Source of the DNA: Lingula anatina
Taxonomy: Eukaryota > Animalia > Brachiopoda
Direction of reading: 5' to 3'
DNA length: 64,000 nt
Assembly (NCBI GenBank): GCA_051362555.1
Contig: CM120648.1
Location: 4,832,587-4,896,586, forward strand
The translations under genes were made by a program, and so were the position numbers. The notes under the pieces were generated by a model, which did not search any database, was not told where the DNA came from, and was given only the letters and a program-made list of their open reading frames with translations. Below are positions 6,530-52,623 of this stretch, in pieces. Position 1 is the first letter of the stretch; each line of letters begins with the position of its first letter.

Positions 6530-8160
6530 ACTAGAGGATCAGAGAGGCGATACCGCCTCCGGATATTGTACCACCAGCTGGAGTAAGTGCATTCGGATGG
6601 AAAACCAAAAAAAAAAAAAAAAGGGACACCACTATCAGTCTTGTGCTTGACAAGCTCTATAAAATGCAATAAAACAAGAGTCCTCAAAATGCACAAAGAA
6701 CATAACTGTAAAAATGGTCCAATCAAGTGGTTTTTCCAATTGACCTGTATTTTCCTAATATTGATCACTCCTGTGATTTTCTACACAATAGGCCTGTTAG
6801 TTTTCCTTGAAATGTGTCATCAGTGTTGCATATATGCTGACAAAAGAAAAAAACCTAGAGGCATCACTGGGCATATCTCTCTTAGTTTTGAAGATAAGAG
6901 GGGCAAGAAAATATGCAAAGTTCAGTTCATGATAAAAAAAGTAGATCAAAGGTCAATTTCAAGGTCAGTTTATGACTTCCTATTCAGGTTCAATACTAAC
7001 TATGGATATTTATTTTGCCAATTTTGGAGATATAAAGGCCAGAAAACATGCACAGTACAGTTCATCATAAAAAGTAGGTCCAAGGTCTTCCTATTTAAGT
7101 TCAATAGTAACTATGGGCGTATCTCTGCCAGTTTTCGAGATATAAGGGAAAGAAAATTTCCAAAGTTCAGTTCATGGTAAAAATAAGGTCAAAGGTCAAT
7201 TTCAGGATCACAGTAAGATTGCCAGAATATGACTCCTATTCAAATTCAATAGTAATTATGGCGTATCTTTGCCAGTTTTGGAGATATAAAGATCAGGAAA
7301 CTTGCAAAGGGCAGTTCATCATGAAAAGTAGGTCAAAGGTCAATTTCAAGGTCACAGATAGATTATCAGTATATGACTTCCTATTCAAGTTCAATAGTAA
7401 CTATGGGCATGTCTCTGCTGATTTTGGAGTATTTCACATTTTATTTTCACCACTGAATATTGGATGTTGAACTTTTTGATATAGTACAACGCCTACGCCG
7501 TATCGAAAACAAAAAAACGGAAACAACCTTCAGTGTTGCACTTGACAAGCTCTACAAAATGCAAAAAACAAGAGGTCTCTTGCTTTAACGGTTCCAGAAT
7601 TAGAGAGAGTTTTCAGTTTCAGCATCTACCGGCTGCTATTCCCGTGAAAATGCACGTGCAAACTCACGAAGATGAAAGATAACCCTAGGGCTAACACCTG
7701 CCCATAATAATATTGGTTAAATCTGTGTAGTTTCTGAAAATTGGCAAAAATAAAATATTTTTCACAAAAAATTCTCAATTTTAGAAAATTTTGGCCCGTT
7801 TGACCTTTAAATAAAGGTCAAAGGTCAAATCCAGGGGCATATTTGAAATCTCCACATATGACTTAAGGTCAGCCATCTGTAGAAATTTTTCCCATAATTC
7901 CTTCGGTTTGGGAGATATTTAGCATTGAATTTTCAAAAATTTTGACAAGGGTGCGTTTCAACAAGCGTCACGCCCAGGCCAATGCACCGACTGAGACAAA
8001 AAACCAGGGGGTTCAAGCTGAGATTATATGTGACCTAAATCCAAGAGATGGGGACACAGGTCCTTGCGGTCTAGGAGGAGAAGCGGTAACGGTGACTTGT
8101 ATCCCACGCCATTCTGCGGAGCCGCAGGAGCCGCAGGAGACTAAAACTAATAACTGTATT
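6530..8160. mobile_element. Non-autonomous DNA element with internal tandem core repeats (Helentron/HINE-like architecture; family not certain, ends approximate)
   Basis: About 4 diverged 110-145-bp units at ~6880-7430 (shared ...AGGTCAAAGGTCAATTTCAAGGTC...TTCCTATTCAAGTTCAATAGTAACTATGG...TTTTGGAGATATAA). They are bracketed by a ~50-bp direct repeat (CTTGACAAGCTCTAyAAAATGCAA..AAACAAGAG at ~6645 and ~7541). The element starts ACTAGAG after an A-rich run. No transposase or Rep ORF. Confidence 0.55.
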
Positions 8161-11100: not shown

Positions 11101-12997
11101 GATTGTTGACTCTTAGTTACCAAGCAAAGCTTTATAGTTTCGTTATCACCCATTTCCTCTTTCTTTTTCTATATGAAATCTATGTTTAGCAGCGGGTCTG
11201 CGATTCAAACTTCTGTAACAAAGTACAAACGCAGGCCCTGTCATCTCGTTCACATCCTTTTTTTGGTTTGATTTCCAGATTTTAAAATTTTAATTTTGTA
11301 CTGTACTGAGAGTGACTGTAAGATACACCTAGCGAAACCATTCACGTGTATCAAAGAGACGATCATCGGCTGCCTTTGATGAACACCAACTCATCATCAA
11401 CGGGTCACTCCCCGGGGAGCAGAACGTGCCTGCCGATGCGGGCGTTCATGGCTGTCTCTCCCAAGTCGTCCGTGGGAGCTAAAAAAGCCGTTTTTGTGTG
11501 TAAATACGCCAAGCGAAGCGGAGCAAAGCAATGGCCTACTGGCAACCTGCCCGCCTTCTCTCTCTCCCCTCTACCAACCAAGTACAATGCCCGCCGTGGC
11601 AGAGTAAATTCGCCTTTATGACATGTCTATAGCAAATACTGTGGAAGCTTCCACTTCTTCTTTAACTTATTGTAACTAGGCGGTAGCATTACCTTAAAGC
11701 ATTTGATAGTAAATGTTAGATGTAAACATTGAACAACTGACGGTTTCAAATTGTGGATATTCTCCTCTCTGTTCCTTAGGTGTCTTCTTGATGATTAATA
11801 CGGGTACAGCGCCGGTGGTCGTTGTACTATAAACAAAATGAAATCAAACCAAAAATGGAACTTTTTTATTATTAAATAGTAGTGTCATTTTCCCGTGCGA
11901 CTTATGCCGGTGGCCGCAATATTATCAGCAAAATAAGACCAAACAAAAATGGGATTTTTTTTAGAATTAAATAGTGGCGGAATTATCCCTTGAAATCCTA
12001 AACCTGATAAATAAGGGTAATTTTTTTACGCATAGAAGCTGTGGAAAGTTTGAACTTAAGTTGTCATTCCTTCCTTCATCGACACGTTCTTTCTGTCTGT
12101 GGATTAAAGCGACACCCAATAATGAAATTAATTGTTTTATCGCTGATGTAACAAATTTGGGTTTTCTATTTCTGGTTTGTATTTTTCTGGTTTATTGTGC
12201 CAATGTTATGTTGGTATCCCCTTAAACAACTGGGGGGGGGGGTCATGTCGTAGATTTCAGATATGTACAAACATTGCAAAAGTCTCTACTGACGTCTCTA
12301 TTATATTTACCATGCCACTAAGTATGGAGGAATACTCAAAACCAAATCAAAAATTTGAAGAATACGCATGCCTTTGGTGTCAATAACATTGTTTTCTAAA
12401 TATTTAGTTTGAAAAGGATCAACCGGTGTTTAAAAACAAAGAAATACTCCCGTCCGTAACTCGTCTATTTTTACCAGAACCATCCAGCGAAGAACGCCGA
12501 GTCGCTGAAAGCTTCCAGCGCAACCCCACCTGGATTTGCACGTGCAGAAACTCATTTGGCAGATTATTGACAACTTTGTTGACAAACACGCGTAAACAAA
12601 AGGTGCAAACACGAGGGGTAATACCGCCACGCGGAGGTGATTAGTACCCCTCTGTAATTATCTGCTTAAAACAGTTCGCACGTGCGCGTGAAAGCATTAA
12701 TGCCAAGAAGCAAAGCTCGCCGCGGCAGTTGGGTTTCTTAATGACGGAGAACCCTGCCTTTGTTGTTTACCTGTTACTAATCCGTCGTCACTTTTGGTCG
12801 ATTTGAGTCGTGAATATTTAGAAGTAATCAGGTAAAAAGGTGAGGATAGAAATCAGGCCAGGGCGACCCACAGGTGGAAGAGCCGTGTGTCCAAATATTT
12901 CAGATATTTAGAAAACAAGTGAACGAGAGAATTGTTCTACTTTTTATTAAGTTTCTTTCTTTGCCATGACATCACCAGGAAATCGTTATGTGAAGAG

Positions 12998-13278
12998 TGT
13001 AGTGATCCGGCATCGGTGTGTGGCTTGTCTTGGCCTCGATCCGAGTCGAGGCTGAGTGTCAGTTTGGGAGAAACTCGATAGCTGTAAGGAGTGGGTTACA
13101 GCGAGGAGCACTGAGAACAAAGGGCGACGCCATTACTGTGAAGCAAGATAGAGATAGAGGTTGGAATCCTGATTTCTAGTGGTTATCTATAGGAAAGGGA
13201 TTTCGTTACTGCTAAGGTAAGCAGATTATTAGTAGAAATATCCGGAGCTAGAGTTGATTAGCGTAAGGGATTTCTATA
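12998..13278 (+). repeat. 5' LTR (281 bp, TGTAG...CTATA)
   Basis: Matches 23345-23625 with no mismatch found by eye; immediately followed by the PBS. Confidence 0.96.
13214..13222 (+). promoter_or_regulatory. Candidate splice donor in LTR (AAG|GTAAGC, GT at 13217-13218)
   Basis: Near-consensus 5' splice site; would pair with the strong acceptor at 20668-20669 before ORF3. Confidence 0.6.
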
Positions 13279-13279
13279 T

Positions 13280-13290
13280 TGGTGGCAGCG
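13280..13290 (+). promoter_or_regulatory. Primer binding site, tRNA-Leu type
   Basis: TGGTGGCAGCG one base after the 5' LTR; complementary to the ...CGCUGCCACCA 3' end of eukaryotic tRNA-Leu. Confidence 0.85.
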
Positions 13291-13541
13291 AAAACAACGA
13301 GCCCACGTTGCTGAATAAAAGTTTAAAAACGAGTAGTTGTTTGTTTTTTCATACAAATAGCTGTTTTTCTAGTTTATTCAGCGGTTTGCTTAGGCAGACG
13401 TTACTGTTTTGTAGAAATTTTGCAAGTAACAATTAAATTGTGGGTGCATTATTTCTAGAGGGGGCTATATTTATATATTTTCAATAAAGATATATTTATA
13501 GTCGTTTGTGTTCTTCATTTTTATATATATTGATATTAAAT

Positions 13542-16025
13542 ATGGAGAATGTACATGTCATTAAAGTCAACTCGGCTGACGTTCAGGAGCTGTCACTAAT
13601 ACCGGGTGTTAGTGATAAAATAGCTGAAACTTTGGTGTCAGCGAGACAAAATGGTGGACAAATCACCAGGGAGTTATTGCAACTAATAACTCGTAAGAAG
13701 TTGACGGATGATGTGGTGGAGTTATTAGACTTTACTCCTAATACTACCCTCTCTACAGTACAGCAAGCCTCTGGAGGTAACACCAGCGCGGATCAGAAAA
13801 TGGTGTCACGGGAGCCCAGTAGTTCTTCGGGTTTCGGGATTGGGTGTTTATGGACTTCTACACCCATTCGGTCACCCTTGAGTGAGGTACCAAGGGCTGA
13901 CGAGAGGCGCATGGTCTCCACGCCTGTACAGACAGGAGAGGGGATGAGGGAAATGGTCTCCACTTCAGTGCAGACGGTGGTATCTACACAGACTGGAGAC
14001 AAGTCGGAGTTACATAGGAGGTATGTAAACCTGGAACAGGCAGGTGTTAACCAGGCACCTGGGGGGATTCCTGTGGGTTCCAGACAGGAATCTCGAGGGC
14101 CAGCTAGAAGGCCGTTGAGTAAAATTCCGTGGGGAATAACTCCTATTCCCGAGAATCCAGGGCATGGTGATGACACTGAAGTGAAAATTCCATTCACTCA
14201 GGATATGCGTATACCTGGAAGGAAGACAGAAACCAGCCAAGTGCGACAGGCTACTGTACACTGGAAAACAGAGCCAGTCCCAGCTTACACCCGAGGGAGT
14301 CATGAGAATTATGGTGCAATGTATCAGCCAGGTCCATTCACACAAGGCCAAAATGGACCGACTACTGGGGTCAGACATGTAACTTTGCAGCCAGGTGTGG
14401 TCACACGGGACCAGTGTGGACCGAGTCTTGCTTTTATGCAAGATGGGCAGCAGTCAGGTGGGTTCACACAACACCAGTGTGGATCGAATCTTGCTTTTAT
14501 GCAAGATGTGCATCAGCCAGGTGGGGTCACACGAGACCAGTATGGACCGAGCCTTGCTTGTGTGCAAGGCGGGCAGCAGCAAAGGGAGGTCACACGAGAC
14601 CAGTATGGACTGTACCGAGATGTCAGACCAACAGGGTGGCAGCCAGATCAGGTCACACTAGATCACTATGGACCGAGCCATGCTTATATGCATGGTGAAC
14701 AGCTGCCAGGTGAATTTACACTGAACCATGGTGGACCGAATCGTGAAAACTGTGGTCGGGGTCTAGAGCCATTCAGACAAGACTGGTTGAGACCGGACTA
14801 TGGTGAACCAGTACCAGTTACCGGTATCAGCACTCAAGGATATGACTGTGGGGGGCCATACCAGGCGCCAGTCATTTCTCAGAGGAGAGCTGATGTACCC
14901 TGGGAACCAGTTCCTACTAATGAGGCTTCTTACCCTATGGAAGTCGGAGGTAGAGGTGTCCAGGGAGGACATCGTGGTGTACAGGGAAGATATAGTGGTG
15001 TCAATGGAGGACACGATGGTGATCATAGGAGTCATGGTGGATGGGGATCTACAGTTAGCGCCCCAACACGGAAGTTTAACCCTCCAAAGAACTTAGTCTT
15101 TGATGGGCGTGGTAACTGGACTGCATTTAAGAGCTTATTTGTCAGACATGCAGTTCGTGAACAGTGGGATGATGCCTTGTCCCTCGATGGGTTATGTTGG
15201 TGCCTGCGGGGAAAAGCTCAGGATTACTATGCTATACTGAGTCAACGGGTAGGTGGCCTAACATACCAAGTGTTGCTGCATGAACTGGAGAAACGGTTCG
15301 GAGAGCGAGATACGCCAGCTACAGCACAGTCGCGTTTCCAGAGTTCAGTTCAGGAGTCTAATGAGTCGTTAGATGACTGGGCTGATCGTGTGTTAACTTT
15401 GGCAGGTCGTGCTTACGAGGGCTTGCCGGAATCATTCACTGATATGCAGGCGGTGAATCGATTTTGTGCTGGTTTATTGGACAAGGAAGCGGGGCATGCT
15501 ATTTATATGCGGAGTCCTCCAACTGTTCGTGAGGCAGTGCGTTTGGTGAGGATGCATCAGCAAATGTACCAGGTGATGGAACACACGGTGCCGAGGAGGG
15601 GTCGTCAGGGAAACCCGAGAGTAAATCAGGTAGCGACGGCCGAAATACCTCCAACACCTGAGATGTCCAGGTTGGTCCAGTGTATGGAGAACATGGAGAA
15701 ATCCATTAAATCTTTACAGCTGGATGCGAAAAAGAAAACACCTCCTAATCCGGATATGTCCAAGTGGGTCCAGCGAATGGAGAATATGGAGAAATCTATT
15801 AAGTCTCTACAACTGGATGCGAAAAAGAAGGCGATCGAGAAAAGTGGGTCGCCGAAGGCAGAAAATGGGTCCAAGTCTGAGAGTAGACCTATGGATGGGA
15901 CTTGTTTTAAATGCCGGGAAAAGGGACATTTTATCCGTGAGTGCCCGAGATGGGGAGATGCCTTGGAAAAGAGACAAGATAAGGTCTCAGGGGCGAAGCA
16001 GGGAAACGCCAAGGGGTCGAGGTAG
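13542..16025 (+). CDS. gag: Gag polyprotein with N-terminal helix-hairpin-helix (ComEA/HHH_3-like) domain, repeats, capsid-like region and CCHC knuckle
   Basis: First ATG at 13542 (the ORF track starts at an upstream TTG). KVNSADVQELSLIPGVSDKIAETLVSARQNGG is HhH-like. FDGRGNWTAFKSLF...WDD...LRGKA...LEKRFG...QESNESLDDWADRV...RFCAGL is typical retrotransposon capsid. CFKCREKGHFIREC at 15903-15944. Confidence 0.93.
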   Translation: MENVHVIKVNSADVQELSLIPGVSDKIAETLVSARQNGGQITRELLQLITRKKLTDDVVELLDFTPNTTLSTVQQASGGNTSADQKMVSREPSSSSGFGIGCLWTSTPIRSPLSEVPRADERRMVSTPVQTGEGMREMVSTSVQTVVSTQTGDKSELHRRYVNLEQAGVNQAPGGIPVGSRQESRGPARRPLSKIPWGITPIPENPGHGDDTEVKIPFTQDMRIPGRKTETSQVRQATVHWKTEPVPAYTRGSHENYGAMYQPGPFTQGQNGPTTGVRHVTLQPGVVTRDQCGPSLAFMQDGQQSGGFTQHQCGSNLAFMQDVHQPGGVTRDQYGPSLACVQGGQQQREVTRDQYGLYRDVRPTGWQPDQVTLDHYGPSHAYMHGEQLPGEFTLNHGGPNRENCGRGLEPFRQDWLRPDYGEPVPVTGISTQGYDCGGPYQAPVISQRRADVPWEPVPTNEASYPMEVGGRGVQGGHRGVQGRYSGVNGGHDGDHRSHGGWGSTVSAPTRKFNPPKNLVFDGRGNWTAFKSLFVRHAVREQWDDALSLDGLCWCLRGKAQDYYAILSQRVGGLTYQVLLHELEKRFGERDTPATAQSRFQSSVQESNESLDDWADRVLTLAGRAYEGLPESFTDMQAVNRFCAGLLDKEAGHAIYMRSPPTVREAVRLVRMHQQMYQVMEHTVPRRGRQGNPRVNQVATAEIPPTPEMSRLVQCMENMEKSIKSLQLDAKKKTPPNPDMSKWVQRMENMEKSIKSLQLDAKKKAIEKSGSPKAENGSKSESRPMDGTCFKCREKGHFIRECPRWGDALEKRQDKVSGAKQGNAKGSR

Positions 16026-19000
16026 GGGGCCTATCCTCGATCCGAGATGACGCTAGGTCAGACGTCAAAGAAACTGATGATAAGGCCCGAGAAAAAGGAT
16101 CTGAAGCAGAAAAGAACAAACCTGAACCAGAGGTGGTATATGTGAATCAGATTGGATCCGTATCCGACTACTCTTTAAAAATCAGAGTAGGTGATAAAAC
16201 AGTGAGGGCATTAGTGGATACCGGTGCTCGTGTCACCATTTTATCTGACAGTATCTACAATAGCTTGAAAAATCCGCCGAGAAAATTAAAGGATGTGCAG
16301 TTGTGGGCTGCAGGGCGGAAGATGGCTATGCCGGGTTTTATCGCAGGTCCGATAAAATTAAAAATTGGACACAAGTGGTATACGGAAACAGTATACGTGG
16401 CTCCTTTGGAGGAAGAGATGTTGCTGGGAGTCGACATATTGAGAGATCGGGGTCAAGCCATGATTGATGTTGGAAGAGGGATTCTGCACTTCGATGACAT
16501 GAGTTTAACGTTGGACTGTTGCCTGGAGAAGGGTGTTCCCCAGGTAGCACGCGTTATGGTGTCAGAGCGCCGGGTAATTCCTCCTAACTCTGTAGTCAGA
16601 GTGGCATGTAAAATGGATATGGACCTCGATGATTATGTCATAGAGCCAGTGGAGAGGGGCGCGTGTAATTTCTTGGTTCCAAGGGTTATACGTAATAGGG
16701 GGAGTGACCCTATTATGGTGCTGATTAACCCAAGTGACAGGTATAAGCTGCTACAGAAGGGGTCAGAAATTGGGAGGGCTTTTTCTTATGAAAAAGTCGT
16801 GACGTCTGGACAAGCGTTTGACGAACATGTGCAATGTGGTTCAGTTTCGACTGAGTCGAGGGTGTCTAGTACGACATCGAGTCAAACTGAAGAGGATGTG
16901 GTGAGAGTAAATTACTCTATTCCTGCACCGCGGAGGCCTAAGGTGAGACCAGCCGAAGGCGAGGGTGAAGAAAGGCCAGGGGTTCCTCCACATTTACAGA
17001 AGGTGTTCGAGGAATCGAGTACAGAGTTGAGCGAGGACCAGCAAGCTCAACTGGGTCAAGTACTGACCGAGTTTCAAGATGTGTTTGCCCAAAGTGAGTT
17101 TGACTTAGGTAATTTTACTGCCTTAGAACATACTATTGACACGGGGCAAGCGAGGCCGATCAAGCAGAGGATGCGGCGTACACCAGTGTGTTTTGCTAAT
17201 GAGGAGGAGGCTCATCTGCAGAAAATGATCCAAGCAGGGGTAATACAAGAATCCACATCGGATTGGGCGTCAGCGCCGGTGTTAATTCGTAAAAAAGATG
17301 GTAGCGTTCGTTACTGCATTGACTACCGTGCCTTGAATGAAGTTACCACTAAGGATGTATTCCCACTGCCACTGGTGGACAATTGTTTGGATACCTTGTC
17401 GGGTAGCGTTTTCTTTAGTAAGTTGGATGCAAACTCAGCTTATTGGCAGGTACCCATTCGAGAGGAGGATAGAAAGAAGACCGCGTTCATAACAAAGTAT
17501 GGATTGTATGAACACATTCGCATGGCGTTTGGTCTTTGTGGGGCACCAGCTACCTATGCCAGAATTATGAATTTGGTCTTTCGAGGTTTATCATGGAAGA
17601 CGGTGCTGGCGTTTCTGGACGATATAGTGGTGCTGGGTGCGAGTTTCGAGATTCATCTGCAGAATCTGCGTGAGGCTCTAATGAGGTTTAGAGCGTATGG
17701 GCTAAAGTTAAAGCCGAAGAAGTGTTCTTTCTTCCAAAGAAAGATCGAGTTTCTAGGTCGAGTAGTGACTGGGGACACCTTAGCCATGTCGGAGCATGAT
17801 ATCCAGGTGGTCAGAGATTGGCCGATGCCAACATGTGGAAAGGATGTCGAGAAATTTATGGGCCTAGCAAACTACCACAGGACGTTTATCAAGGACTTTT
17901 CCAAACTCGCTGCTCCACTATATGCCATGACTGGTAAGAACAATTTTCAGTGGGGTGAGGAGCAATCTGTGTCATTTAGATCACTGAAGGAAGCATTAAC
18001 TTCACCACCAGTGTTGGCTATTCCGAGGCAGGATGGCGAGTATATTTTGGACACAGATGCGAGCGAGTATGCCATTGGAGCAGAGCTGCTTCAGGTACAA
18101 GATGGCGAGGAAAAAGTTGTAGCTTACGGAAGCTACGGCCTCACGAAAGAGCAGAGGCGGTATTGTACAACACGTAAAGAGCTGCTTGCTGTTGTACGTT
18201 TCACCAGGCAGTATAGACACTATCTCCTGGGGAGGCCATTCATGGTGAGAACCGACCATTCAAGCTTGCGTTGGTTAATGAGGTTCAAGGAGCCGCAGGG
18301 TCAGTTGGCGCGATGGTTAGAGGAGCTGTCGCAGTTCAACATGGTTCTATCACATCGGGCAGGGCGACTTCATGCAAACGCGGATGCACTGTCAAGAGCT
18401 GGACACACGGGGCAGTGTTTAACGTTTGGGACAGGAGTACACCTTGGAGATCTACCCTGTGGAGGATGTGAATATTGTAAGCGTGCTCACTCAAACTGGG
18501 CCAGGTTTGAGGAGGAGGTTGATGATGTGGTGCCATTGGTGATCCGAGGGGAAAACCAGGGGGGTACCAGGAGCGTCGAAAGCGAAGAAACCTCAAGTGA
18601 CCGACAGAGTAACAGTGGCAAGACGGTAAACACTGTTATGGTTGACTCAGTGAGGCAGTTTTCAGAACCGGAGGTATTGGGGCCAGTGGTAGATACCTCG
18701 CCTGATGAAAAGGTGGAAGACATGCCTGAGTACCATATGTTGAGAGAGGTGATCGAGAATATCCCATGGGACCCAGGAAAATCGGTCCGAGTTAATGTGA
18801 TCACCACTCGTCAGCAGGCTAAAAAGATGAAAAGAACGCCTGAAGTGGGCTCTACTGGTGTAGAGTCGAGTTCAAAAGAAGTGGGCTCTACTGGCGTAGA
18901 GTCGAGATCAACTAAAGTGGACTCTAAGGATATAGAGTCGAGACCAGCTGCAGTGGGCTCTAATAGTACAGAGTCGAGGTCAACTGTGAAGGCTGAGAGT

Positions 19001-20557
19001 AAGAGTACCTCAGGGCTGCGCAGTTGGGGGTATTCAGTGGAAGAAGTGAAAGCGGCACAGAAAGCAGATCACGATGTGAATCTGATTAGGGAGTATGTGG
19101 ACAACGCCATTATTCCAAATCAGTCTACTCTATTCAGAGGGAGCAAGGAATTAAAGTCTTATTGGCTGGATAGAGAGATGTTTGTAATGATTGATGGTGT
19201 ACTGTATTGGTCAGATCCGAAGACTGACGATAAGAAGTTAGTGCTTCCACATGGATTGCGAGTTAAGGCAATCGAGTTACACCACTGTTTACCATCAGCA
19301 GGACATCAGGGAGTCTCTAGGACTAAAGAGAGACTTCGAGAACGTTTTTATTGGCACAAGTTAGGCCGAGATGTGGATAACTTTGTGCGAGGCTGCGCAA
19401 GTTGCAATCAAAATAAAAAGTCGGCAAGACATGGCCGGGGTGCTTTAACCGAGTTCCAGGCTGGAGAACCTATGGAACGTGTACACTTGGATTTTCTGGG
19501 TCCTCTACCGAAGAGCACCAGGGGAAATGAGTACATACTCATGATGGTTGACCAGTTTACCAAGTGGGTGGAGTGCATCCCGCTTCCATCGCAGTCTGCT
19601 GAGGAGACAGCGCAGGCGGCAGTCGAACAGTTTTTCTCACGGTTCGGGGTACCGTTTGAAATATACACGGATCAAGGAAGAAATTTTGATTCGAAGCTGT
19701 TCACTGAGGTGTGTAGGATATTGGAGATCCATAAAGCACGGACGACACCCTATCGCCCATCTTCCAATGGTCAGATTGAGAGGTACAATCGGACATTGAT
19801 GGACGCAGTGCGTTGCTTTACAGAGAGATCTCAAAACCAGTGGGATCTTCATCTACAGCAAATTGCCGGGGCTCTCAGGTCATCGGTCAACAGGATGACA
19901 GGTTTTACGGCTAACAAGCTGATGTTGGGCAGGGAAGTCAACACTCCTGCTGGAATAATGTTCCCACAGAAGGGAAGAGAGCCGAGTAGTACCGAGGGGT
20001 ATGTGGCTGAGTTAGAAGCCGACCTACAGAAGGCGCACGAGACTGCCCGAGGTAAGCTCAAAGTATCTTCTAAGCGTATGAAGCGGGATTACGACCTGAG
20101 GATTTTGGAGCGAACCTATGCGGTCGGGGATTCAGTTTACATACTGGATGCGGCCGGAGGCCGGGGGAAGTGTAAGAAACTATGTCCCCCGTGGAAGGGT
20201 CCGGGAGTCATCGTGGAGAGGCTGAGCTCGTATTTATACCGGGTGAAGGTAAGAAATGCGGTGTTCGTGGCCAATCATGACAGGTTAAAACCTTGTCGAG
20301 ACAGTGAGATACCTCTGTGGATCCAGCAATGGAGAAAAAATCCCGTGGTTGACTCTACAGTCAAAGGGGATGACAGAGTGTATTGTCGCTGTAGGCAGAA
20401 ATGGCAGGGCCGATTCATGATACAGTGCGATTATTGTAGTGAATGGTATCATGGGTCTTGTGTAAACATTACTGCGTCTGACGCCCTCTCGATAAAGAAG
20501 TACAAGTGTGAGGATTGCACACGTCGATTGGTGCGTCCGGGCCATAATCGTGTATAG
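15983..20557 (+). CDS. pol: Pol: aspartic protease - reverse transcriptase - RNase H - integrase - PHD finger (translated as Gag-Pol)
   Basis: ALVDTGA (D at 16217); RT WASAPVLIRKKDGSVRYCIDYRALN, KLDANSAYWQ, MAFGL, FLDD (17612-17623); RNase H LDTDAS...ELLAV...TDH...NADALSR; integrase H..GH..CASC zinc finger and LDFLGP/TDQG/GQIER core; C-terminal C4HC3 PHD at 20378-20518. Confidence 0.97.
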   Translation, partial: GLRGEAGKRQGVEVGGLSSIRDDARSDVKETDDKAREKGSEAEKNKPEPEVVYVNQIGSVSDYSLKIRVGDKTVRALVDTGARVTILSDSIYNSLKNPPRKLKDVQLWAAGRKMAMPGFIAGPIKLKIGHKWYTETVYVAPLEEEMLLGVDILRDRGQAMIDVGRGILHFDDMSLTLDCCLEKGVPQVARVMVSERRVIPPNSVVRVACKMDMDLDDYVIEPVERGACNFLVPRVIRNRGSDPIMVLINPSDRYKLLQKGSEIGRAFSYEKVVTSGQAFDEHVQCGSVSTESRVSSTTSSQTEEDVVRVNYSIPAPRRPKVRPAEGEGEERPGVPPHLQKVFEESSTELSEDQQAQLGQVLTEFQDVFAQSEFDLGNFTALEHTIDTGQARPIKQRMRRTPVCFANEEEAHLQKMIQAGVIQESTSDWASAPVLIRKKDGSVRYCIDYRALNEVTTKDVFPLPLVDNCLDTLSGSVFFSKLDANSAYWQVPIREEDRKKTAFITKYGLYEHIRMAFGLCGAPATYARIMNLVFRGLSWKTVLAFLDDIVVLGASFEIHLQNLREALMRFRAYGLKLKPKKCSFFQRKIEFLGRVVTGDTLAMSEHDIQVVRDWPMPTCGKDVEKFMGLANYHRTFIKDFSKLAAPLYAMTGKNNFQWGEEQSVSFRSLKEALTSPPVLAIPRQDGEYILDTDASEYAIGAELLQVQDGEEKVVAYGSYGLTKEQRRYCTTRKELLAVVRFTRQYRHYLLGRPFMVRTDHSSLRWLMRFKEPQGQLARWLEELSQFNMVLSHRAGRLHANADALSRAGHTGQCLTFGTGVHLGDLPCGGCEYCKRAHSNWARFEEEVDDVVPLVIRGENQGGTRSVESEETSSDRQSNSGKTVNTVMVDSVRQFSEPEVLGPVVDTSPDEKVEDMPEYHMLREVIENIPWDPGKSVRVNVITTRQQAKKMKRTPEVGSTGVESSSKEVGSTGVESRSTKVDSKDIESRPAAVGSNSTESRSTVKAESKSTSGLRSWGYSVEEVKAAQKADHDVNLIREYVDNAIIPNQSTLFRGSKELKSYWLDREMFVMIDGVLYWSDPKTDDKKLVLPHGLRVKAIELHHCLPSAGHQGVSRTKERLRERFYWHKLGRDVDNFVRGCASCNQNKKSARHGRGALTEFQAGEPMERVHLDFLGPLPKSTRGNEYILMMVDQFTKWVECIPLPSQSAEETAQAAVEQFFSRFGVPFEIYTDQGRNFDSKLFTEVCRILEIHKARTTPYRPSSNGQIERYNRTLMDAVRCFTERSQNQWDLHLQQIAGALRSSVNRMTGFTANKLMLGREVNTPAGIMFPQKGREPSSTEGYVAELEADLQKAHETARGKLKVSSKRMKRDYDLRILERTYAVGDSVYILDAAGGRGKCKKLCPPWKGPGVIVERLSSYLYRVKVRNAVFVANHDRLKPCRDSEIPLWIQQWRKNPVVDSTVKGDDRVYCRCRQKWQGRFMIQCDYCSEWYHGSCVNITASDALSIKKYKCEDCTRRLVRPGHNRV
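16001..16043 (+). promoter_or_regulatory. -1 programmed ribosomal frameshift signal (gag-pol)
   Basis: G_GGA_AAC heptamer in gag phase at 16001-16007, then a 6-nt spacer and a hairpin GGGTCGAGGTAGG/ggg/CCTATCCTCGATCC (16014-16043). The pol frame is -1 and open from 15983 (TAA at 15980-15982). Confidence 0.88.
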
Positions 20558-20635
20558 ATTAAGGTCGAGTAGAGGGTTAAGGTTGAGTGGAGATAAGAGT
20601 TTAATTAGCTAAGAGTTTAGCTTAAGTCAAATAAC

Positions 20636-20669
20636 TCTTACTCAAAATTCTTCTCTTTTTTCTTTTTAG
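20636..20669 (+). promoter_or_regulatory. Candidate 3' splice acceptor for ORF3
   Basis: CTTAC branch-point-like motif, then a pyrimidine tract TTCTTCTCTTTTTTCTTTTT and AG immediately before ATG 20670. The tract stands out in an otherwise purine-rich strand. Confidence 0.75.
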
Positions 20670-23072
20670 ATGGAAGAGCAGAAGTGGCTTAACCTTATTA
20701 AGCCGATCCAAGAGGCCTGCAAGGAGAAGAGGCTCCACCCAAGCCGGGAGTTGGTAAATGTGATTGCCAGCCGACCCATGGCCTTGCAGGGGGATGCTGA
20801 GGCACTGTTGCTGAAGCAGGTGGCACTCTCTAGGGAGAGAGATGCGGAGGCTTGGCGCAAAGATTGTGCCAAGGGCCTGTTGGCTGTAGGTTTTCAATCC
20901 TGCAGTTGGGTATGTGAGCATGTTGCCAGGGTTGCCACTCCCAGAAAAGGGAAGGGTACTCGAGAGGCGTGGCATGCCACATATCGAGATTTCCGATTGC
21001 AAGAGGATCCTACTATGGAGCATAGGAAGGATACAGTGACTCAGAGCACTGTGGTAAGAGGAAGTCCTGAAGCAGCAGTGCGAGGGGAGAGTGAGGAGTC
21101 GGGGTCAGTATCAGACAGCATACTGAGGACTCCCACTGAGTCAATGGAGGTGGACACACCTTCGAGTCCGGTGAGGAAGTCACCGAGGGCTACCCTTACC
21201 AGCTGGGGTAGTGAAATGGACTTGTGTGAAAAGATAACCTATGCTGAGGCGGTCAAGAAACCAAGTCCGAGTGGTGTGGTAGTGACACAGAGTCGAGACA
21301 AGTCAAGTAAGACTGGGGGCTCTTACCAACCACGGCCTAAGAGTCGAGTATGGTTAGTAAAGAAGACCAAGGACTCAACAACAAGGCAGGATGCACCTCC
21401 TAAGGGACCTTCAAAATTCACCAAGAAGGATGAGGAAAAAAGGTGTTTCCGATGTAAGAAAGTAGGGCATGTGGCTCGGAAGTGTCCAACTCTGTCCGAG
21501 GAAGAAAGGTGCTTCAGATGTTCAGAGCTGGGGCACATAGTCAAAGATTGCCCACTTTCAAGGAAAGCGGCCAAGGACAGGAAAGAAGTGTCTAAGGCGA
21601 GACGAGATGACTCCAGGGGGAGTTCATCGGGCAGGCGTGATGACTCCAGGGGGAGTTCATCCTATAAACCTGCGACAAGTGGTCTCGAGGAGCTGGGTAC
21701 ATGGGCCCATGCTAAGAGATCGAGGCAGAGTAGTAGCTCCAGTCATGGAGGAGTTACTAGTGCCGTGGCCACAGGAATTAGTGCGCCGAGTCCTGACTTG
21801 TGTCCTATTTTTGGATGCAATAGTCAGTTAACGGAGAAACACGCATGGAACAAACATATCCCTCCAGTGTTTCATCCCGTGTTCGACGGTAAGGGGATGG
21901 AAAAGAGAAGATTTTTGGCCCTTAATCTTCTAGCCACCCAGCTATTTGGAATGAACGCAAATATGGACAGGTTATGTCAAGCCTGCGATGTCATGGACCA
22001 GGGAGATCGGGAGATAGCTCCGAGTAGGAAAGAGGGTGTGGACAGCTTCATCCACGGCCTGGGGTTGTCAGGCGAGTATGCCCTCAGAGTGGGATCTCTC
22101 CTGTTGTGGAAGCCTTTGCTAAGCCTAATAGCGAAATTATGGCCGTCAGACCTGGAGGCGTATAGGAACACATGTTCCATAGAAGAGGAGGAAGAGCTGT
22201 CTATTCCTAAGCCTCCAGTAGGATACGACAGTCACTGTCACGTAGATCGTGTACGCCAGCACTTGGAGTTACCAACAACAGCTGGGTTACGGGAGGTCAT
22301 CGAGGCCAAGCAGGTGGATGACAAGGAGATAACAGTGTCAGGGGCCACTGTTATATTCTGCGACCCAGCAACCTACCCAAGTGCTGAGGAGGTGGCTACT
22401 CTGAAGGCAGAGGGAGCCGTGGTGTCTGTGGGTTGGCACCCCAGACACGAGTTTGACCCAGAGGGCTGGGCGAAGTTTGAACAGACAGTAAGCAACCCAG
22501 AGGTGTCTGTTCTGGGTGAGATTGGTGTAGATTACACTACCTCATCGTGGCAGTGGGAAGCTCAGTTTGAAGTCCTGGAAAGAGCTCTTACATTATTAAG
22601 AGAAGACCAGGTACTGGTGCTCCACTGTCGAGGGCCCAAGGATGACTCAGCTGGTGATTTGGTTTGGAGACATGTTTTGAACATTCTTCGATTAGCTGAG
22701 AATGTGAAAAGTGATCAGTTAATACACTGTCACTGTTTCACGGGGTCAAGGAGGATGGTAGAGAAGTGGGTACAGTATTTTCCCAATACTTACTTTGGAG
22801 CTACTGCCATCTTCAGGACGTATACGGATACGTCGAGGAGTAGGAGAGCGATAGAGATGTTACAGTGGATGCCTGCTGGCAGGTTATTGCTGGAAACTGA
22901 TGCCCCCTACTTCGGATTTCCGACAAGGAGTAAGTCCACTCCAGCTTTCCTGGGGAAAGTAGCGGAAGTCGTTGCAAAAATTCGTGGGTGTGACTGGGAA
23001 GATATTCTCAAGATCACCGAGGAGAATGGGCGTCGGTTATATCTAGACCGACTGGGGCCCAGTGTGGAGTAA
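20670..23072 (+). CDS. ORF3: 800-aa protein with 2x CCHC zinc knuckles, a C2H2-like motif and a C-terminal TatD-family deoxyribonuclease
   Basis: CFRCKKVGHVARKC and CFRCSELGHIVKDC (21444-21551); CPIFGC...HAWNKH. TatD motifs in order: DSHCH (from 22221), VGWHP, GEIGVDY, VLHCR, HCFTG, LLETDAPY, EN..RLY. No signal peptide or TM segment seen. Confidence 0.92.
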   Translation: MEEQKWLNLIKPIQEACKEKRLHPSRELVNVIASRPMALQGDAEALLLKQVALSRERDAEAWRKDCAKGLLAVGFQSCSWVCEHVARVATPRKGKGTREAWHATYRDFRLQEDPTMEHRKDTVTQSTVVRGSPEAAVRGESEESGSVSDSILRTPTESMEVDTPSSPVRKSPRATLTSWGSEMDLCEKITYAEAVKKPSPSGVVVTQSRDKSSKTGGSYQPRPKSRVWLVKKTKDSTTRQDAPPKGPSKFTKKDEEKRCFRCKKVGHVARKCPTLSEEERCFRCSELGHIVKDCPLSRKAAKDRKEVSKARRDDSRGSSSGRRDDSRGSSSYKPATSGLEELGTWAHAKRSRQSSSSSHGGVTSAVATGISAPSPDLCPIFGCNSQLTEKHAWNKHIPPVFHPVFDGKGMEKRRFLALNLLATQLFGMNANMDRLCQACDVMDQGDREIAPSRKEGVDSFIHGLGLSGEYALRVGSLLLWKPLLSLIAKLWPSDLEAYRNTCSIEEEEELSIPKPPVGYDSHCHVDRVRQHLELPTTAGLREVIEAKQVDDKEITVSGATVIFCDPATYPSAEEVATLKAEGAVVSVGWHPRHEFDPEGWAKFEQTVSNPEVSVLGEIGVDYTTSSWQWEAQFEVLERALTLLREDQVLVLHCRGPKDDSAGDLVWRHVLNILRLAENVKSDQLIHCHCFTGSRRMVEKWVQYFPNTYFGATAIFRTYTDTSRSRRAIEMLQWMPAGRLLLETDAPYFGFPTRSKSTPAFLGKVAEVVAKIRGCDWEDILKITEENGRRLYLDRLGPSVE

Positions 23073-23330
23073 GAATACCACGACGCTGGCCAGGAGGGGT
23101 ACGACCTGGTCAGGAGAAGAGGCTGGGAAGGAGTTTTCCTAGTGATGAGTACCGTGTATTGATTCCTTGGCTGGTCAGCTTGGGCTGATCGAGAAGCGAC
23201 AAGGGATCTGGTAGAGAGAATGGAGTGGGCGGTCCTTGGCTGGGTCAGCATGGGCTGATCGAGTAGTGATACAAGGATCGTAAGAATGTGTTGTTGGTGT
23301 TGGATTGTAATGACTACCTCCAATCCAGAT

Positions 23331-23344
23331 AAAGTGGGGAGGAG
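23331..23344 (+). promoter_or_regulatory. Polypurine tract
   Basis: AAAGTGGGGAGGAG directly abutting the 3' LTR. Confidence 0.85.
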
Positions 23345-23625
23345 TGTAGTGATCCGGCATCGGTGTGTGGCTTGTCTTGGCCTCGATCCGAGTCGAGGCT
23401 GAGTGTCAGTTTGGGAGAAACTCGATAGCTGTAAGGAGTGGGTTACAGCGAGGAGCACTGAGAACAAAGGGCGACGCCATTACTGTGAAGCAAGATAGAG
23501 ATAGAGGTTGGAATCCTGATTTCTAGTGGTTATCTATAGGAAAGGGATTTCGTTACTGCTAAGGTAAGCAGATTATTAGTAGAAATATCCGGAGCTAGAG
23601 TTGATTAGCGTAAGGGATTTCTATA
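23345..23625 (+). repeat. 3' LTR (281 bp)
   Basis: Copy of 12998-13278; followed by TSD AGAG. Confidence 0.96.
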
Positions 23626-25001
23626 AGAGGAAATGCGTTTATCATATTATTGCTCCTGAAGACGGCAATACGTTTTATAATGTTTTTGTTATCCTTTTTC
23701 GGAGTCAGTACCCGGGCCTGTGCTATCTATGATGTCTCTAGACTAATTCCAGGATTAAACTGAAATGAAATTTATTGTCCTAGAGGAAATATGGAGCAGC
23801 AATATTGAAGTCAGAACTAAGTAGAGATAAGTGATAAGGTGTCGGTTTTCTGGATAAATGATAGAAAAATTATTAAAGAATTTATTGTTGATAGCAACAA
23901 GGAGTTGTATCATAAACCTCCTTGATAAAAACATAAGAAAAGGTTAACAAGTGCACGGAAGGCAGCAACAATTCTTTATTTAATATAATATGTTGCCGCC
24001 TTTTGAAAATTGGAAAAAAATCTATAACCATGGATTTGTGAGAAGAAAAAGCACAGAATTTAATCTCCACACCACTCCCAAACCTAAATAACCTACATCG
24101 AAGACATTTATGCTAACAGGGTCTGCTTCAAATTAGATCCCAACCGAAATGTTTTGTCTTCTTAGACTTTTCGCAATTCAATTCAGTATAATGTCTTTAT
24201 TAAATTTGATTCATTGGCACCTCCTGTTCCCTAAGCCGGGCTGCATGCACGGTATAATAGATGGCACGCGGTCCACGCGAGGCAAATCTCCTCGTGCCGG
24301 GAAACGGGTAGACGCCGGGCCCATATTGCGAGGAAATTTGTTCAAAAATTGAGATAACGTTAAGCCCATTGGACGCTGGCATTCTTTGGGTTCTAAATCA
24401 ATCTTTATGGAGCCATCGTGATATCTTCGAAGGGTAATCCCTTCATTCTTTCTCGAGACTTTTTGTGTAGATTTATAACGGGTATCAAGGCAATTAGCGC
24501 CCCGCCTGCCCTCATGGATGATGCATTTATCTATCCATGTGTCTGGCCCCTCTATCTGGCAAAGGCCTTCAATGAGGCACATGCATAATGATACGCCATA
24601 ATGTCAATTTAAATAATATCAGTATAAGCAAAATCGCAAGAGGTAAGCTTTAAAACAAATTTCTCATGATTGTTATATATTTATCATTCCCCGAAATGTG
24701 CCATCCACCGCATCGCATTCTCTGAGCCAGATGTATGTGTATTCATACAACAGACCAGTTTTAGGCACAGAGTGGGCGGTATTGACAACAGCCATGCCCT
24801 GTATGTGTATATTTCAAAGCAATAGATAATACGCACAAACGTTCCCTCGTCTCCCTGTATCTCGGAATGCGTTATCGTGGTTCACGCCATGTTTGACAAA
24901 AACCTGGAGTAAAACATCTAATAACCACGCGAAGAGAGCAAATTCAGATTGTAAAGCGGTTCTACTTAACCGCTGACCAACTGCCCTGGAATGTTCGAAT
25001 G

Positions 25002-26248: not shown

Positions 26249-27051
26249 TCACCATGGTCTCCACATTCTGTCATTTCTGTTGAGCTCAGCGTTTACAAAA
26301 CTATGTCCATTGTTGTTTCCATCAACTTTACAAAAGTTTGTCAGTGGCGCCAAACCAGATTCAACTGTTGTCTGCTTCTGCTGCTGAGCGGGACTGAGCT
26401 GGTGCATTGTGGGAATGTTCAAGACGGTGGGAGAAGTCGTCTGCAACTGTTGTTGTCCCTGCTGCTGCTGCACGTTCGGTGATGTTTGCAAAACGATGGG
26501 CATGGCAGTGACATTATTTACTGGGCTTATAACATTGGATTGCTGTTGTAGCAACTGTCCATTTTGAATTTGGCTGGGGCTTTGCAGAATATATGCCACC
26601 TGTCCATTTGGAAGCGTGCCTGGAATGAGTTGGAATGATCCAGTGATGTTCGACTGAACTAGTCCATTTTGAGGGCATGAGACGGTAGGCTGTTGCTGAG
26701 TTTGCTGTGGTTGACATGGCAACATACTCGGCGTCGTCACGGTGGTAAACTGGGAAGCGCTTGGAATCTGAACGTGGATTGGCTGGAGAGTTTGCGGTTG
26801 TGGTTGCTGCGGCGCTGCTATTGTCTGTGGAGCTGTGATCGTCTGCTGCACGGTTGACGCAGACGATGACGTCTCTGATGGCGTGACTTGGTTGACTTTG
26901 TATGCGCAGGAGGCGAGGTGGTTCAGGAGGTGCAGGCGGACGTCCTCGTTAATTCCGTCAATAGAACGCATGTAACGCGTCACCTCGTTGGCACATTCAT
27001 TGAAGCCCGCTCTATACTTTCCTAGCACGCTTGGGTCACTGGTGACAGCAG
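26249..27051 (-). CDS. Hes: Hes-A exon 4 (Orange domain, Q/P/S/T-rich tail, WRPW)
   Basis: cag| acceptor at 27054-27052, phase 1; AAVTSDPSVLGKYRAGFNECANEVTRYM...LLNHLASC; ends MWRPW-TGA. Confidence 0.96.
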
Positions 27052-27249
27052 CTGAAGAAGATAAACAAAACAACATAAGAAAAAAATCCTCAAGCCAAAA
27101 TTCAAAAAGACAACACTGTCACATAAACTAGTAGACATATTCAAATGTAGTACCAAATTGCATAAATCACCGAACAAGTTTGCTAATTGAAATATAAGCA
27201 TAATGTAAATTTGGTTGATTAACGACACATTTTGACTATATTCTCTTAC

Positions 27250-27337
27250 CTGCCATTTGTTGTCTTTGAATGCTTCTCAGATGTTTCACCGTCATTTCTA
27301 AAATGTCTGCTTTCTCCAACTTGGAATACCGAGACGT
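27250..27337 (-). CDS. Hes: Hes-A exon 3 (bHLH helix 2)
   Basis: [29 protein letters not shown]; 88 nt with cag/GTAAGA boundaries. Confidence 0.96.
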
Positions 27338-27542
27338 CTGTAAAAACAAAGAAATAAAACATAAACACAAACCCAAAACATAAAAATATGAAAAAATGTA
27401 CTCGACAGTAGTTGGAAAATTCAGTAACGATCAACGAATACATTGAACAGTAGTCAACGAATGCCCTTTTAACAAAAAACATCCCGAAAGAAATTAATCT
27501 CAACCGACTGCGTGTTGTCGTGTTGTGTTGTCACTCGTTAAG

Positions 27543-27638
27543 TTGACCCCAGCGCCCCCTCGCGTCTGCTGGCGCGTGTCCTGCTAGTGACCCGTTGCGA
27601 AAGTTAAAGCATCGTCTGCTTCGAGAGCGTGGGAACGA
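27543..27638. promoter_or_regulatory. Conserved intron-2 module of Hes-A
   Basis: TGACCC, CGTCTGCTnGCGCGTG, GTGACCCGT and GAGCGTGGGAACG occur in the same order as at 52624-52718. Confidence 0.7.
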
Positions 27639-27972
27639 ACCGCATTAAAGCAACCTAAGGAATTTTCAGTCACGTGCTGGCCACACTTTGTCAAATTTCA
27701 TTAATTCTAACTTTAAGAAGTGGTTAGTTGAATAAAGATACATTGTTCTCCAAACTTAATCAGAGTTGTCGTCTGCAATCAAAGCTTGTCGTCTCCCGAA
27801 TTGCGTTTTTTTTTCTAACCCCGAGGTTTTACTTTTTAAGACGTCTCATTTTACAGCAAATTTTCGCTGTCTCAATAACTTTCTAAGTTTGTTTAGTTTT
27901 CAAGTCGGAAAATGTTTATTCTAAACTATCGGGTGGCTTCAATTTGTGTCGTATATAAAGAGGGATACTTAC

Positions 27973-28068
27973 ATCTCTTTGCATTGCCTGCAGCACAAGG
28001 GCTTTCAACTCTGTTAAACATTCATTAATTCTTTGACGTCTGCGTTTTTCCATCAAAGGTTTGTTAGT
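27973..28068 (-). CDS. Hes: Hes-A exon 2 (basic region/helix 1)
   Basis: TNKPLMEKRRRQRINECLTELKALVLQAMQRD; 96 nt; hairy-type proline in the basic region; cag/GTAAGT. Confidence 0.96.
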
Positions 28069-28223
28069 CTGCAAAAGATAAAATGTAACATTTAAAATAC
28101 AACAAAATTTCAATATGTACATAAGAAGTTTCTTTCAGTCACAACAAATCATCATTGCTGCAAGTGTTTAAAAGTAAACAAAATATCATAATATGAAAAC
28201 AAGTATTAAAATATCAAACTTAC

Positions 28224-50583: not shown

Positions 50584-51365
50584 TTACCACGGCCGCCACA
50601 TATTTCTTTCCTTTTCTGTGACTCCCAGAGAAAATGGTTTTTGGTCTTTCATAACGTAAGGGCTTAGAGTTTGAGATACAGCGACTGGCGGCTCGCTGGC
50701 GGGTGCGGGACTGCGGTTGTGTGCTGCGGGACATGCGACATTTACACTGTAGATTCCCGCGTTGTTTTGACATGTCGTCTGGTAATTCTGAGAAGGCACC
50801 AGCACTGGAAGACTGGAAGACGAAACTGAAATAGCGTTTGTTAAGTGTCCATTTGCAACTGTAGGCGTAATTGGTGCCTTAGAAATAGTGTCATTATTGT
50901 TATTCGTTGCAGGGGTTGAGAAGTTTGGACTATGGAGAATGTAAGCCACTTGTCCATTTGGTAGCGTGCTTGGAATGACCTGGATGGTCCCAGCGAAGTT
51001 TGAAGTCGACTGTGGAGACGATAATGTCTTCTGTTGTTGTTGTTGTTGCTGCTGCTGAATGTTGTTGAAGTTCTGGAATGGTAGACTGTGAGGGGTGATC
51101 ACGGTGTTGACATTGGGGATCTGGACGGAGATGGGCTGCTGCGTTGGTGTACCCATGGGAGGAGAGCAGGCTTTGGGTGGGGGTGGCACGTTCTCGTTCT
51201 GCTGATTGACCCTCTGCGTGCACGTGGCCAGGTGGTTAAGGAGTCTTAGCCGGACGTCTTCCTCGAGACCGTCGATAGAGCGAAGATAGCGTGAGACTTC
51301 CCCAGCGCACTCGTTAAAGCCAGCGCGGTACTTGCTCAGCACACTAGGATCGTTGGCTACTGCAG
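50584..51365 (-). CDS. Hes: Hes-B exon 4 (Orange domain, poly-Q, WRPW)
   Basis: cag| at 51368-51366; AAVANDPSVLSKYRAGFNECAGEVSRYL...LLNHLATC; ends MWRPW-TAA. Confidence 0.96.
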
Positions 51366-52225
51366 CTGTAACGAAAAGGAATAACGGAATTTAAAATCGA
51401 TTTAAAAAGTGAATTTTTGCTCTTGTCTAACCTCCAATAGCGTTAAACTATAATTAAGAAATATTATATACATTCTCAAGCAAAAAATAGAATTGTGAAC
51501 AAAACGGTATAATGAAATTTAACCTATGGCAGTTGGCCGCCGAGTTGACAATACATCCACAAAGGGCGTTTTTTATTATCTCTCTCAAGTACCAGAGATA
51601 AAATATCTTGGCATCTAATCGGTCAAATATTTTTTCTCTTTTTTCATTTCACTCCAAAACATCTGTGTTAGCAAAACACATGTGTGATTCATCACCATCC
51701 TTTTCATGTGTTGTTTAAAACAATAGCTGGGCGCACAGCTGTGCCTACAACAGGCGGTTGCCGCGATGAAGATTGCTCATCGCTATCTCCCCATTGTCTC
51801 TCGAGTTCTTCTATTACAAAGGAAGCGAGGTAGGCGAGTAACTGTTAGATTCACCGGGAGAACCACCTTGTAATATGCCAACTGCCAGCCTCAAGTATTC
51901 AAACAAGCTGTCACGTTTAACTGCCCTGTGCCAAGATGGTTTAACTATTACATTGTTCACAGTTCCAGATTGGCTTGATTTAGAACCTTTAATCGAACTT
52001 AGATCTGAGGCTCTGCTACCCCACGCACTCTTTCCATTGTGTACCAGATGAGGAAAGGTGTCTTTATTTAGAAGCCAGTTTACATTATTTATCACCTCCA
52101 CCAGTTTACATTATTTATCATCTCTCCCTCCCACGCCAAAATCTTGGTTTGAATGCAATGCAAGTGCTAAGATCTTGAGTTTCAAAACAAGAACATTTTT
52201 CATGATAATCATTTAAACTATTTAC

Positions 52226-52313
52226 CTGTCATTTGCTGGCGCTGCACTGTTCTTAAGTGTTTCACTGTCATCTCCAAAATGTCCGCCTTTTCTAACTTTG
52301 AATACCGTGATGT
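52226..52313 (-). CDS. Hes: Hes-B exon 3
   Basis: [29 protein letters not shown]; 88 nt; cag/GTAAAT. Confidence 0.96.
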
Positions 52314-52623
52314 CTGAAAAGAAAGAAGCGAGATGTCCTTAATGATATAGTTTTCTTTAACCACAGGAGTTGACTCCAAAATTCAGCTATCAATTAACAA
52401 ACAGAACACGCCAAAACAAACTGAACCCTTCATTTTGGGGACTAATGGCACACAAGCGTATCAAAGTTCTCTTTTTTTCCTTTGATTGCTGGATATTTTT
52501 ACAGTTGGGACAAAACCTGAATTGTAAATAGAAATGTAACCGACCACCTTGTTCGGGAACAATAGAAGCCTTGTATAGCAACTTTTTAGGGGATGATCAT
52601 ATCCCATAATATACACATCACCC

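Follow-up and report, generated by a model that had tools for sequence, protein, structure and literature searches.

Gypsy-type long terminal repeat (LTR) retrotransposons can carry an enzyme where an envelope gene (env) might be expected. Closest to the element described below are Juno and Vesta of bdelloid rotifers, Gypsy-type elements whose third open reading frame (ORF3) is not an env and encodes a DEDDy 3'-5' exonuclease with intact catalytic residues and of unknown function (PMC5408684). We analyzed a Ty3/Gypsy LTR retrotransposon of 10,628 bp from the brachiopod Lingula anatina, located at positions 12998-23625 (+) of a 64,000-nucleotide stretch of contig CM120648.1 (hereafter the window, to which all coordinates refer). 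Its ORF3 (20670..23072, +, 800 aa) is likewise enzymatic, with a different fold: the rotifer proteins have a DEDD fold, which is absent from the Lingula ORF3, and the Lingula protein has a TIM-barrel TatD domain. The DEDDy domain was gained at least twice and is shared with Penelope-like elements (PMC5408684), whereas TatD was likely captured once, long ago, and inherited with Pol in several phyla. Neighbors of the clade studied here also carry ORFs that may be of GDSL type, a further likeness to Juno and Vesta.

Other described systems resemble single parts of this element. The CERV protein of Cer1 from C. elegans and the env of errantiviruses are accessory proteins in the env slot that are made from a spliced message, and CERV is nuclear and required for export of genomic RNA (PMC10309623). 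CERV and Env differ from the Lingula ORF3 in lacking TatD, and ORF3 has its own ATG following a predicted splice acceptor. Animal TATDN2 shares with the element enzyme an HxH motif, six metal ligands, a TIM barrel and a long low-complexity N-terminal extension (PMC10085689), and it is the best-scoring cellular relative, with about 25-29% identity to our query row. Unlike TATDN2, the element TatDs are joined to a C2H2 finger and a helical domain and have evolved with an integrase. Chromatin-reading domains are found on other LTR elements, at the integrase C-terminus in chromoviruses and also in the arthropod CopiaMBD (PMC6673714). The chromovirus chromodomain is absent here and a PHD finger occupies its place; chromodomains and MBDs lead to silent or methylated chromatin (PMC6673714), whereas the PHD finger is predicted to bind an active mark. 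Other retrotransposons with a PHD finger are CR1-like elements and REM1 (as cited in PMC6673714). Finally, MolGy1 and MolGy2 of molluscs and annelids are large Gypsy clades from the same host groups that fall outside the named clades and were defined on reverse transcriptase (RT) and RNase H only (PMC6238403, PMC8556966). The words PHD and TatD have no occurrence in the main texts of these two papers, and our clade may be MolGy1 or MolGy2. We found no description of a TatD-bearing LTR element in a literature search that did not cover Repbase, GyDB, Dfam, subscription journals or supplements.

The original prediction for this locus, made from the DNA alone, proposed a non-standard module on each of the three ORFs: HhH on Gag, PHD on the integrase, and CCHC with TatD in ORF3. 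Pfam confirmed all three. ORF3 (+) begins with a conserved N-terminal part of ~100 aa, followed by a variable linker that contains a pair of CCHC knuckles (21435-21554; zf-CCHC, E 2.4e-9), a C2H2 finger (21801-21857), a helical domain that extends to ~22170, and the TatD domain (22227-23042; TatD_DNase aa 520-791, E 2.8e-38). The metal ligands of the TatD domain are His522, His524, Glu617, His652, His688 and Asp744. This N-terminal HxH with the subsequent Glu, His, His and Asp ligands places the domain in TatD group II, which is defined by HxH (PMC10085689). A structural model of aa 370-800 had a pLDDT of 94 and a TIM-barrel TatD fold, and its top Foldseek matches were TatD, YcfH and TATDN3 (E 4e-13, target-normalised TM 0.74-0.78). 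With TatD assigned both by Pfam and by fold, ORF3 is not an envelope glycoprotein. The protein has exactly the sequence of the Lingula anatina entry XP_013389674.1, which NCBI lists as an ordinary uncharacterised host gene.

An ORF3 profile search of 1.84 billion representatives returned 481 proteins at E<=1e-30, of which the best 150 are of this type. Such proteins were also found in further Lingula families, in Pecten and Ruditapes, and in the sea urchin Diadema. Linkage to pol was seen in one of these named proteins only, the Lingula gene model P0287, in which the integrase core is fused to ORF3; the Diadema protein grouped with the TatDs of PHD-bearing elements in the TatD tree. In the homologues, the common layout starts with a short N-terminal domain and runs through a variable linker to the C2H2 finger, then the helical domain and finally TatD, so that a fast-evolving linker stands beside a conserved enzyme. 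All six metal ligands were complete in 34 of 38 TatD domains, the remaining four being truncated, and dN/dS was 0.105 and 0.141 in two of seven pairs, with dS saturated in the other five.

A C2H2-like finger was present in 73 of the 78 long homologues, and over 61 rows three of its four ligands were invariant and the fourth nearly so. CCHC knuckles occurred in 4/153 homologues. The original prediction had treated CCHC as part of the TatD system, which these counts contradict: CCHC in ORF3 is a local addition, and the conserved partner of TatD is the C2H2 finger with the helical domain. We also considered a recent duplication of CCHC within the element, which found no support, as there was no DNA similarity between the knuckles of ORF3 and those of Gag. 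Modelled alone, the C2H2-helical domain had a pLDDT of 89.8. Comparison with 48,161 chains turned up nothing that clearly matched it (best Z 3.3), a result that does not imply a new fold.

To place the modules on the element phylogeny, we searched with Pol and obtained 1,546 relatives, the best 120 of which were scored for PHD. The finger was present in 104, and most of the other 16 stop or frameshift before it. Named hosts included Ostrea, Pinctada, Gigantopelta, Elysia and Lingula; other relatives lie on contigs within metagenome-assembled genomes (MAGs) of bacterial symbionts, which we read as host DNA. Starting from the integrase-PHD alignment, we scored 105 loci with profiles, 80 of them from metagenomes (out of 139) and 25 from MAGs; no minus-strand control scored better than E 4.5. 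There were 60 PHD loci including the element of the window, and 26 of them were circular or had at least 2,800 nt past the PHD. TatD was found in 25 of these 26; the single scorable PHD locus without it, L048, is a decayed copy. Among the 34 shorter PHD loci, TatD was seen in 9 and the front of ORF3 in 11. HhH was present in 16 of the 17 PHD loci that had a gag core.

We then compared the modules with trees. In a tree of RT, RNase H and integrase (47 rows, both parts at least 80% complete), 33 rows formed an HhH-plus-TatD clade with SH-aLRT support of 99, which contained a PHD-bearing subclade of 18 rows (support 100) and a PHD-less subclade (support 96). The sister group, made up of L104, L105 and L140, had neither HhH nor TatD. 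An integrase-only tree of 92 rows agreed with this topology. TatD was present in 12 PHD-less loci of the integrase-only set and in L130. The Gags of seven placed PHD-less loci showed a clear HhH in three, a weak one in two and none in two. L045 and L094 are complete circular PHD-less elements with HhH and without TatD. From this nested pattern, HhH and TatD likely preceded PHD, and loss of TatD is possible. The TatD and integrase trees were correlated (rho 0.83, 0/2,000 permutations), and 12 of 14 strong splits were common to both.

These results bear on two further proposals of the original prediction. The suggestion of a distinct Gypsy lineage held up, since the clade is well supported and the modules follow the Pol tree with no free assortment. 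The suggestion of one coordinated three-module unit did not: the modules are nested, PHD is confined to a subclade, and PHD-less loci keep TatD. Nor is the set obligate, because TatD is absent in L045 and L094 and Lingula likely has copies that skip ORF3. We conclude that the extra modules were likely acquired one after another and do not form an inseparable system.

The reverse comparison started from TatD in one assembly (G001), in which Pol matches numbered 232. There were 24 TatD matches, and the 22 non-bacterial ones lay on 21 contigs. Integrase or PHD was found just upstream of TatD in 15 of these contigs; the rest were five contigs of 2.4-3.7 kb with little but ORF3, and one with gag only. 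Two scans found no relatives in viral contigs. The symbiont MAG that contains L081-L094, L104, L105 and G001 holds many animal retrotransposon contigs, and its ORF3s are listed at NCBI as a bacterial 'TatD family hydrolase'.

Several other accessory domains were observed in and around this lineage. Within it, a Macro domain stands at the Pol start of L054:148-5256 (E 4e-35), and the protein P0088 has a Tpt1/KptA domain on a Pol. An ORF of ~260 aa lies directly 5' of gag in L094:1696-2472, L105:7304-8113, L140:399-1187 and L159:1164-1886. The L140 version weakly matches GDSL lipase (E 1.5e-4, below the cut-off), and TatD is absent from all four of these elements. An adjacent Gypsy clade has C2H2-finger ORF3s without TatD (L150:5306-6055, L152:247-1386 (-), L153 and L156:6672-7589), and for this reason the zinc-finger ORF3 slot may predate TatD.

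The element TatD profile scored highest against animal TATDN2 (177-194 bits), followed by YcfH (147), TATDN3 (104) and TATDN1 (83); one alignment was used for both of the searches that gave these scores. In a TatD tree of 60 rows, with TATDN2 as the only eukaryotic host family, the bacterial rows fell on one side (support 100), with a TATDN2 group (98) and a group of 35 element-type rows (89). The element TatDs lie beside and not inside the TATDN2 clade, apart from the bacterial rows, and the C2H2-helical domain is missing from the host TATDN2 proteins. An origin from bacteria or phages was considered and is not favoured. On the simplest reading, a TATDN2-like gene may have been captured just once, long ago.

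How ORF3 would be expressed is suggested by the sequence at its start. A predicted splice acceptor, consisting of a polypyrimidine tract and AG (20649..20669, +), lies directly 5' of the ORF3 ATG, and a candidate donor is found inside the 5' LTR (13214-13222, +). Over related elements, a polypyrimidine-YAG acceptor was found no more than 12 nt from the ORF3 ATG at 32 of 40 loci, compared with 92 of 1,294 control ATGs (7%). ORF3 is likely translated from its own spliced message, in which case it would have no physical tie to Gag or integrase. We consider it very probable that ORF3 is made like an env from spliced subgenomic RNA and that it works as a two-metal nuclease, which the element retains to its own benefit. 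In two RNA runs, X14 and X15, the few reads fell mostly in ORF3 (20841-22945), their first mates mapping to the + strand. This pattern may reflect antisense or separate ORF3 RNA; strandedness was not established, and the reads are too few.

Our preferred reading is that of a polymorphic Gypsy element with a TATDN2-related ORF3 nuclease that is produced from a spliced message and acts in trans, removing the RNA of the element's own RNA-DNA hybrids; for this reading as a whole, we judge the chances to be evenly balanced. ORF3 would be an accessory enzyme of the env slot and a nuclear nuclease, and the C2H2-helical domain would provide specificity to TatD. More tentatively, the RNA on which TatD acts might be that of R-loops or hairpins formed where the element itself is transcribed, a G-skewed unit; its removal would help full-length transcription or weaken RNA-guided silencing. 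Of the roles weighed, removal of RNA from the hybrids seems the likeliest, on two grounds: human TATDN2, from the closest cellular family, breaks down the RNA of R-loops (PMC10711561), and the sense strand is G-skewed, with a GC skew of +0.15 to +0.31 within the element and near 0 in its surroundings. Gag would gain non-specific DNA binding from its HhH, on cDNA or chromatin. HhH, TatD and PHD would serve one life cycle as separable parts, and ORF3-less copies would use ORF3 from other copies or manage without it.

Several observations weigh against this reading or limit it. No joint between LTR and ORF3 was seen in four Lingula RNA runs, a sample of 169 reads (17-69 per run, mostly from other copies) that is too small to count for or against splicing. 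A joint that skips ORF3 (20545->23077) was present in two of four Lingula DNA runs, and a similar joint (20549->23084) was present in one of the four RNA runs with four reads. Because the reads are 150 bases and the bridge is short, these joints likely represent ORF3-less copies, that is, a multi-copy ORF3-less derivative of the Lingula family. ORF3 is dispensable in cis, as it is missing from L045 and L094, both circular and complete. The 105 scored loci were drawn from a small number of host data sets and hence are not independent hosts, and one strong split, involving L028, is in conflict between the integrase and TatD trees. Monophyly of the element TatD group has a support of only 89, and purine skew in retroelements is common for other reasons. 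TATDN3 and the bacterial paralogues act on single-stranded DNA and apurinic/apyrimidinic (AP) sites (PMC10085689); with such differences in substrate among group II TatDs, kinship with TATDN2, at about 26% identity to the query row, leaves the substrate unfixed.

We therefore weighed other roles for ORF3. The alternative closest to the coordinated model of the original prediction is a DNA nuclease for a replication step, located in or on the particle or the pre-integration complex, which could trim single-stranded flaps, primer remnants or abasic sites of the cDNA, or help to repair integration gaps. Group II TatDs are known as 3'-5' single-stranded DNA exonucleases and AP endonucleases (PMC10085689, PMC13434339), and fish primordial germ cells need Tatdn2 for DNA repair (PMC12709183). 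The clade boundary common to HhH and TatD also fits such a role, and the two nucleocapsid-like CCHC knuckles of this copy could bind genomic RNA. However, knuckles of this kind are present in only 4/153 homologues, ORF3 is fused to neither Gag nor Pol and starts at a separate ATG behind a separate acceptor, and the ORF3-less relatives L094 and L105 are complete and intact. We regard a replication nuclease as unlikely, though it is the most credible of the alternatives. Slightly less credible is a factor for counter-defence or competition, directed at sensed by-products such as stray cDNA or hybrids, at host small RNAs, or at the nucleic acids of competitors. The accessory position in the env slot and the fast-evolving linker beside a conserved enzyme would suit this role, RNA 3'-end processing and silencing roles have been discussed for the rotifer DEDDy ORF3 (PMC5408684), and a bacterial defence system has co-opted TatD (PMC13434339). 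No result of our analysis, however, links ORF3 to small RNAs or immunity. Counter-defence genes are often swapped frequently, and the strict vertical co-inheritance of TatD is unlike such genes.

ORF3 could also be a passenger, either a recently captured piece of a host gene or an artefact of assembly or annotation. The NCBI entry as an uncharacterised host gene and the copies that skip ORF3 would agree with this explanation. Against it stand dozens of diverged elements with TatD in the same position, conserved ligands, purifying selection and congruent trees, and the C2H2-helical domain is missing from host TATDN2. Coverage by Logan contigs from four runs is also complete, extending to each of the 30 bins into which the stretch was divided. 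The passenger explanation is largely refuted, and we consider it very improbable.

The PHD finger lies at the C-terminus of Pol (20384-20518, +; Pfam aa 1468-1512, E 2.2e-7, above the cut-off), and its closest solved relatives are CXXC1-type fingers, PHF8, PHF2, KDM7A, DIDO1 and BPTF. The C4HC3 ligands are present, as is an aromatic cage of Tyr, Met and Trp; over 105 rows, the cage positions had Y or F in 102, M in 103 and W in 105. We take these residues to be the cage, and fingers of the BPTF, PHF2, PHF8 and DIDO1 type to be readers of H3K4me3. Nearest relatives and conserved cage residues support a finger of the chromatin-reader type, as the original prediction had proposed, with a predicted cage of the H3K4me3-reader type. 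We think it rather probable that the integrase PHD was a later gain of one subclade, and that it recognizes H3K4me3 and shifts integration in favour of active chromatin, much as the chromodomain directs chromoviruses to heterochromatin. The element of the window lies ~2.6 kb past the end of a hairy/E(spl) gene, a single site that is uninformative on targeting. A broader scenario is that an old lophotrochozoan and echinoderm Gypsy lineage took up a TATDN2-like anti-silencing factor that clears R-loops and then, on its integrase, a PHD finger reading H3K4me3; such an element would insert into active chromatin and bring an enzyme that keeps it transcribed at that location, as a mirror of the chromoviruses; we hold this scenario to be improbable as a whole.

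The remaining anatomy is that of a complete and young element. A 4-bp target-site duplication, AGAG, flanks it (12994..12997 and 23626..23629). The 5' LTR (12998..13278, +, 281 bp) ends in TG...TA, where LTRs usually end in TG...CA, and the 3' LTR (23345..23625, +) has the same sequence. A primer-binding site (PBS; 13280..13290, +), which we take to resemble the 3' end of tRNA-Leu, follows the 5' LTR. The PBS motif was also found 5' of gag in L004, and the PBS pattern was matched in few relatives. A polypurine tract (PPT; 23331..23344, +) precedes the 3' LTR. ORF1 encodes Gag (13542..16025, +, 827 aa), and ORF2 encodes Pol (15983..20557, +, 1524 aa from stop to stop) with protease, RT, RNase H, integrase and the PHD finger. 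LTRs, PBS, PPT, target-site duplication and the domain order PR-RT-RH-INT are the hallmarks of Metaviridae. As the original prediction had read by eye, all three ORFs are free of interruptions and the LTRs have no mismatch, being identical over 281/281 bp in an exact alignment.

The insertion is polymorphic, because contigs show the site empty on other chromosomes. The empty-site joint (12992->23625) skips 10,632 bases (10,628 + 4) and was present in three of four DNA runs, from three studies; the assembly itself may derive from one of them. The proposal of a recent element is thereby supported by the empty site as well as by LTR identity. Contig depth, as a hint only, put the element at about 3-7x its flanks, with ORF3 lower than gag-pol in three of four runs.

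Gag (+) has its HhH at the N-terminus (13548-13706; HHH_3 aa 3-55, E 1.5e-6, above the cut-off), with a weak resemblance to EEPD1 and ComEA. In-frame 63-bp tandem repeats (14325-14746), a capsid-like core (15198-15479; Retrotrans_gag) and a CCHC knuckle (15897-15947; zf-CCHC) follow, and gag also contains an internal 93-bp duplication (15643-15828). A predicted -1 frameshift signal (16001..16043, +) consists of a slippery G GGA AAC (16001-16007) and a hairpin (16014-16043) of -20.1 kcal/mol (z -2.06; 6/200 shuffles equally good). Pol is in the -1 frame at 25 of 30 related loci.

Elsewhere in the window, two paralogous hairy/Enhancer-of-split genes (26249-28100 (-) and 50584-53600 (-)) encode proteins with bHLH, Orange and a C-terminal WRPW. 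They have upstream repeats in common (27965-28071/53442-53548 and 28570-28621/54153-54204). Three near-identical tandem copies of 287 bp lie at 62310-63181, and a separate degenerate repeat region with a unit of ~144 bp lies at 6611-7852.

TatD is an apparently undescribed class of enzyme among the cargo of LTR retrotransposons, and it has been kept intact over apparently several phyla. Many entries named 'TatD family hydrolase' or 'uncharacterised' in invertebrate annotations and symbiont MAGs are retrotransposon genes. The diverse natural relatives may aid structural study of TATDN2, which one study found hard to purify (PMC10085689). Sister clades with and without PHD in one genome are a natural control for PHD-steered insertion. 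The clade thus allows direct questions to be asked, namely whether a retroelement encodes a TATDN2-like hybrid or DNA nuclease, and whether an integrase PHD finger steers insertion to active chromatin.

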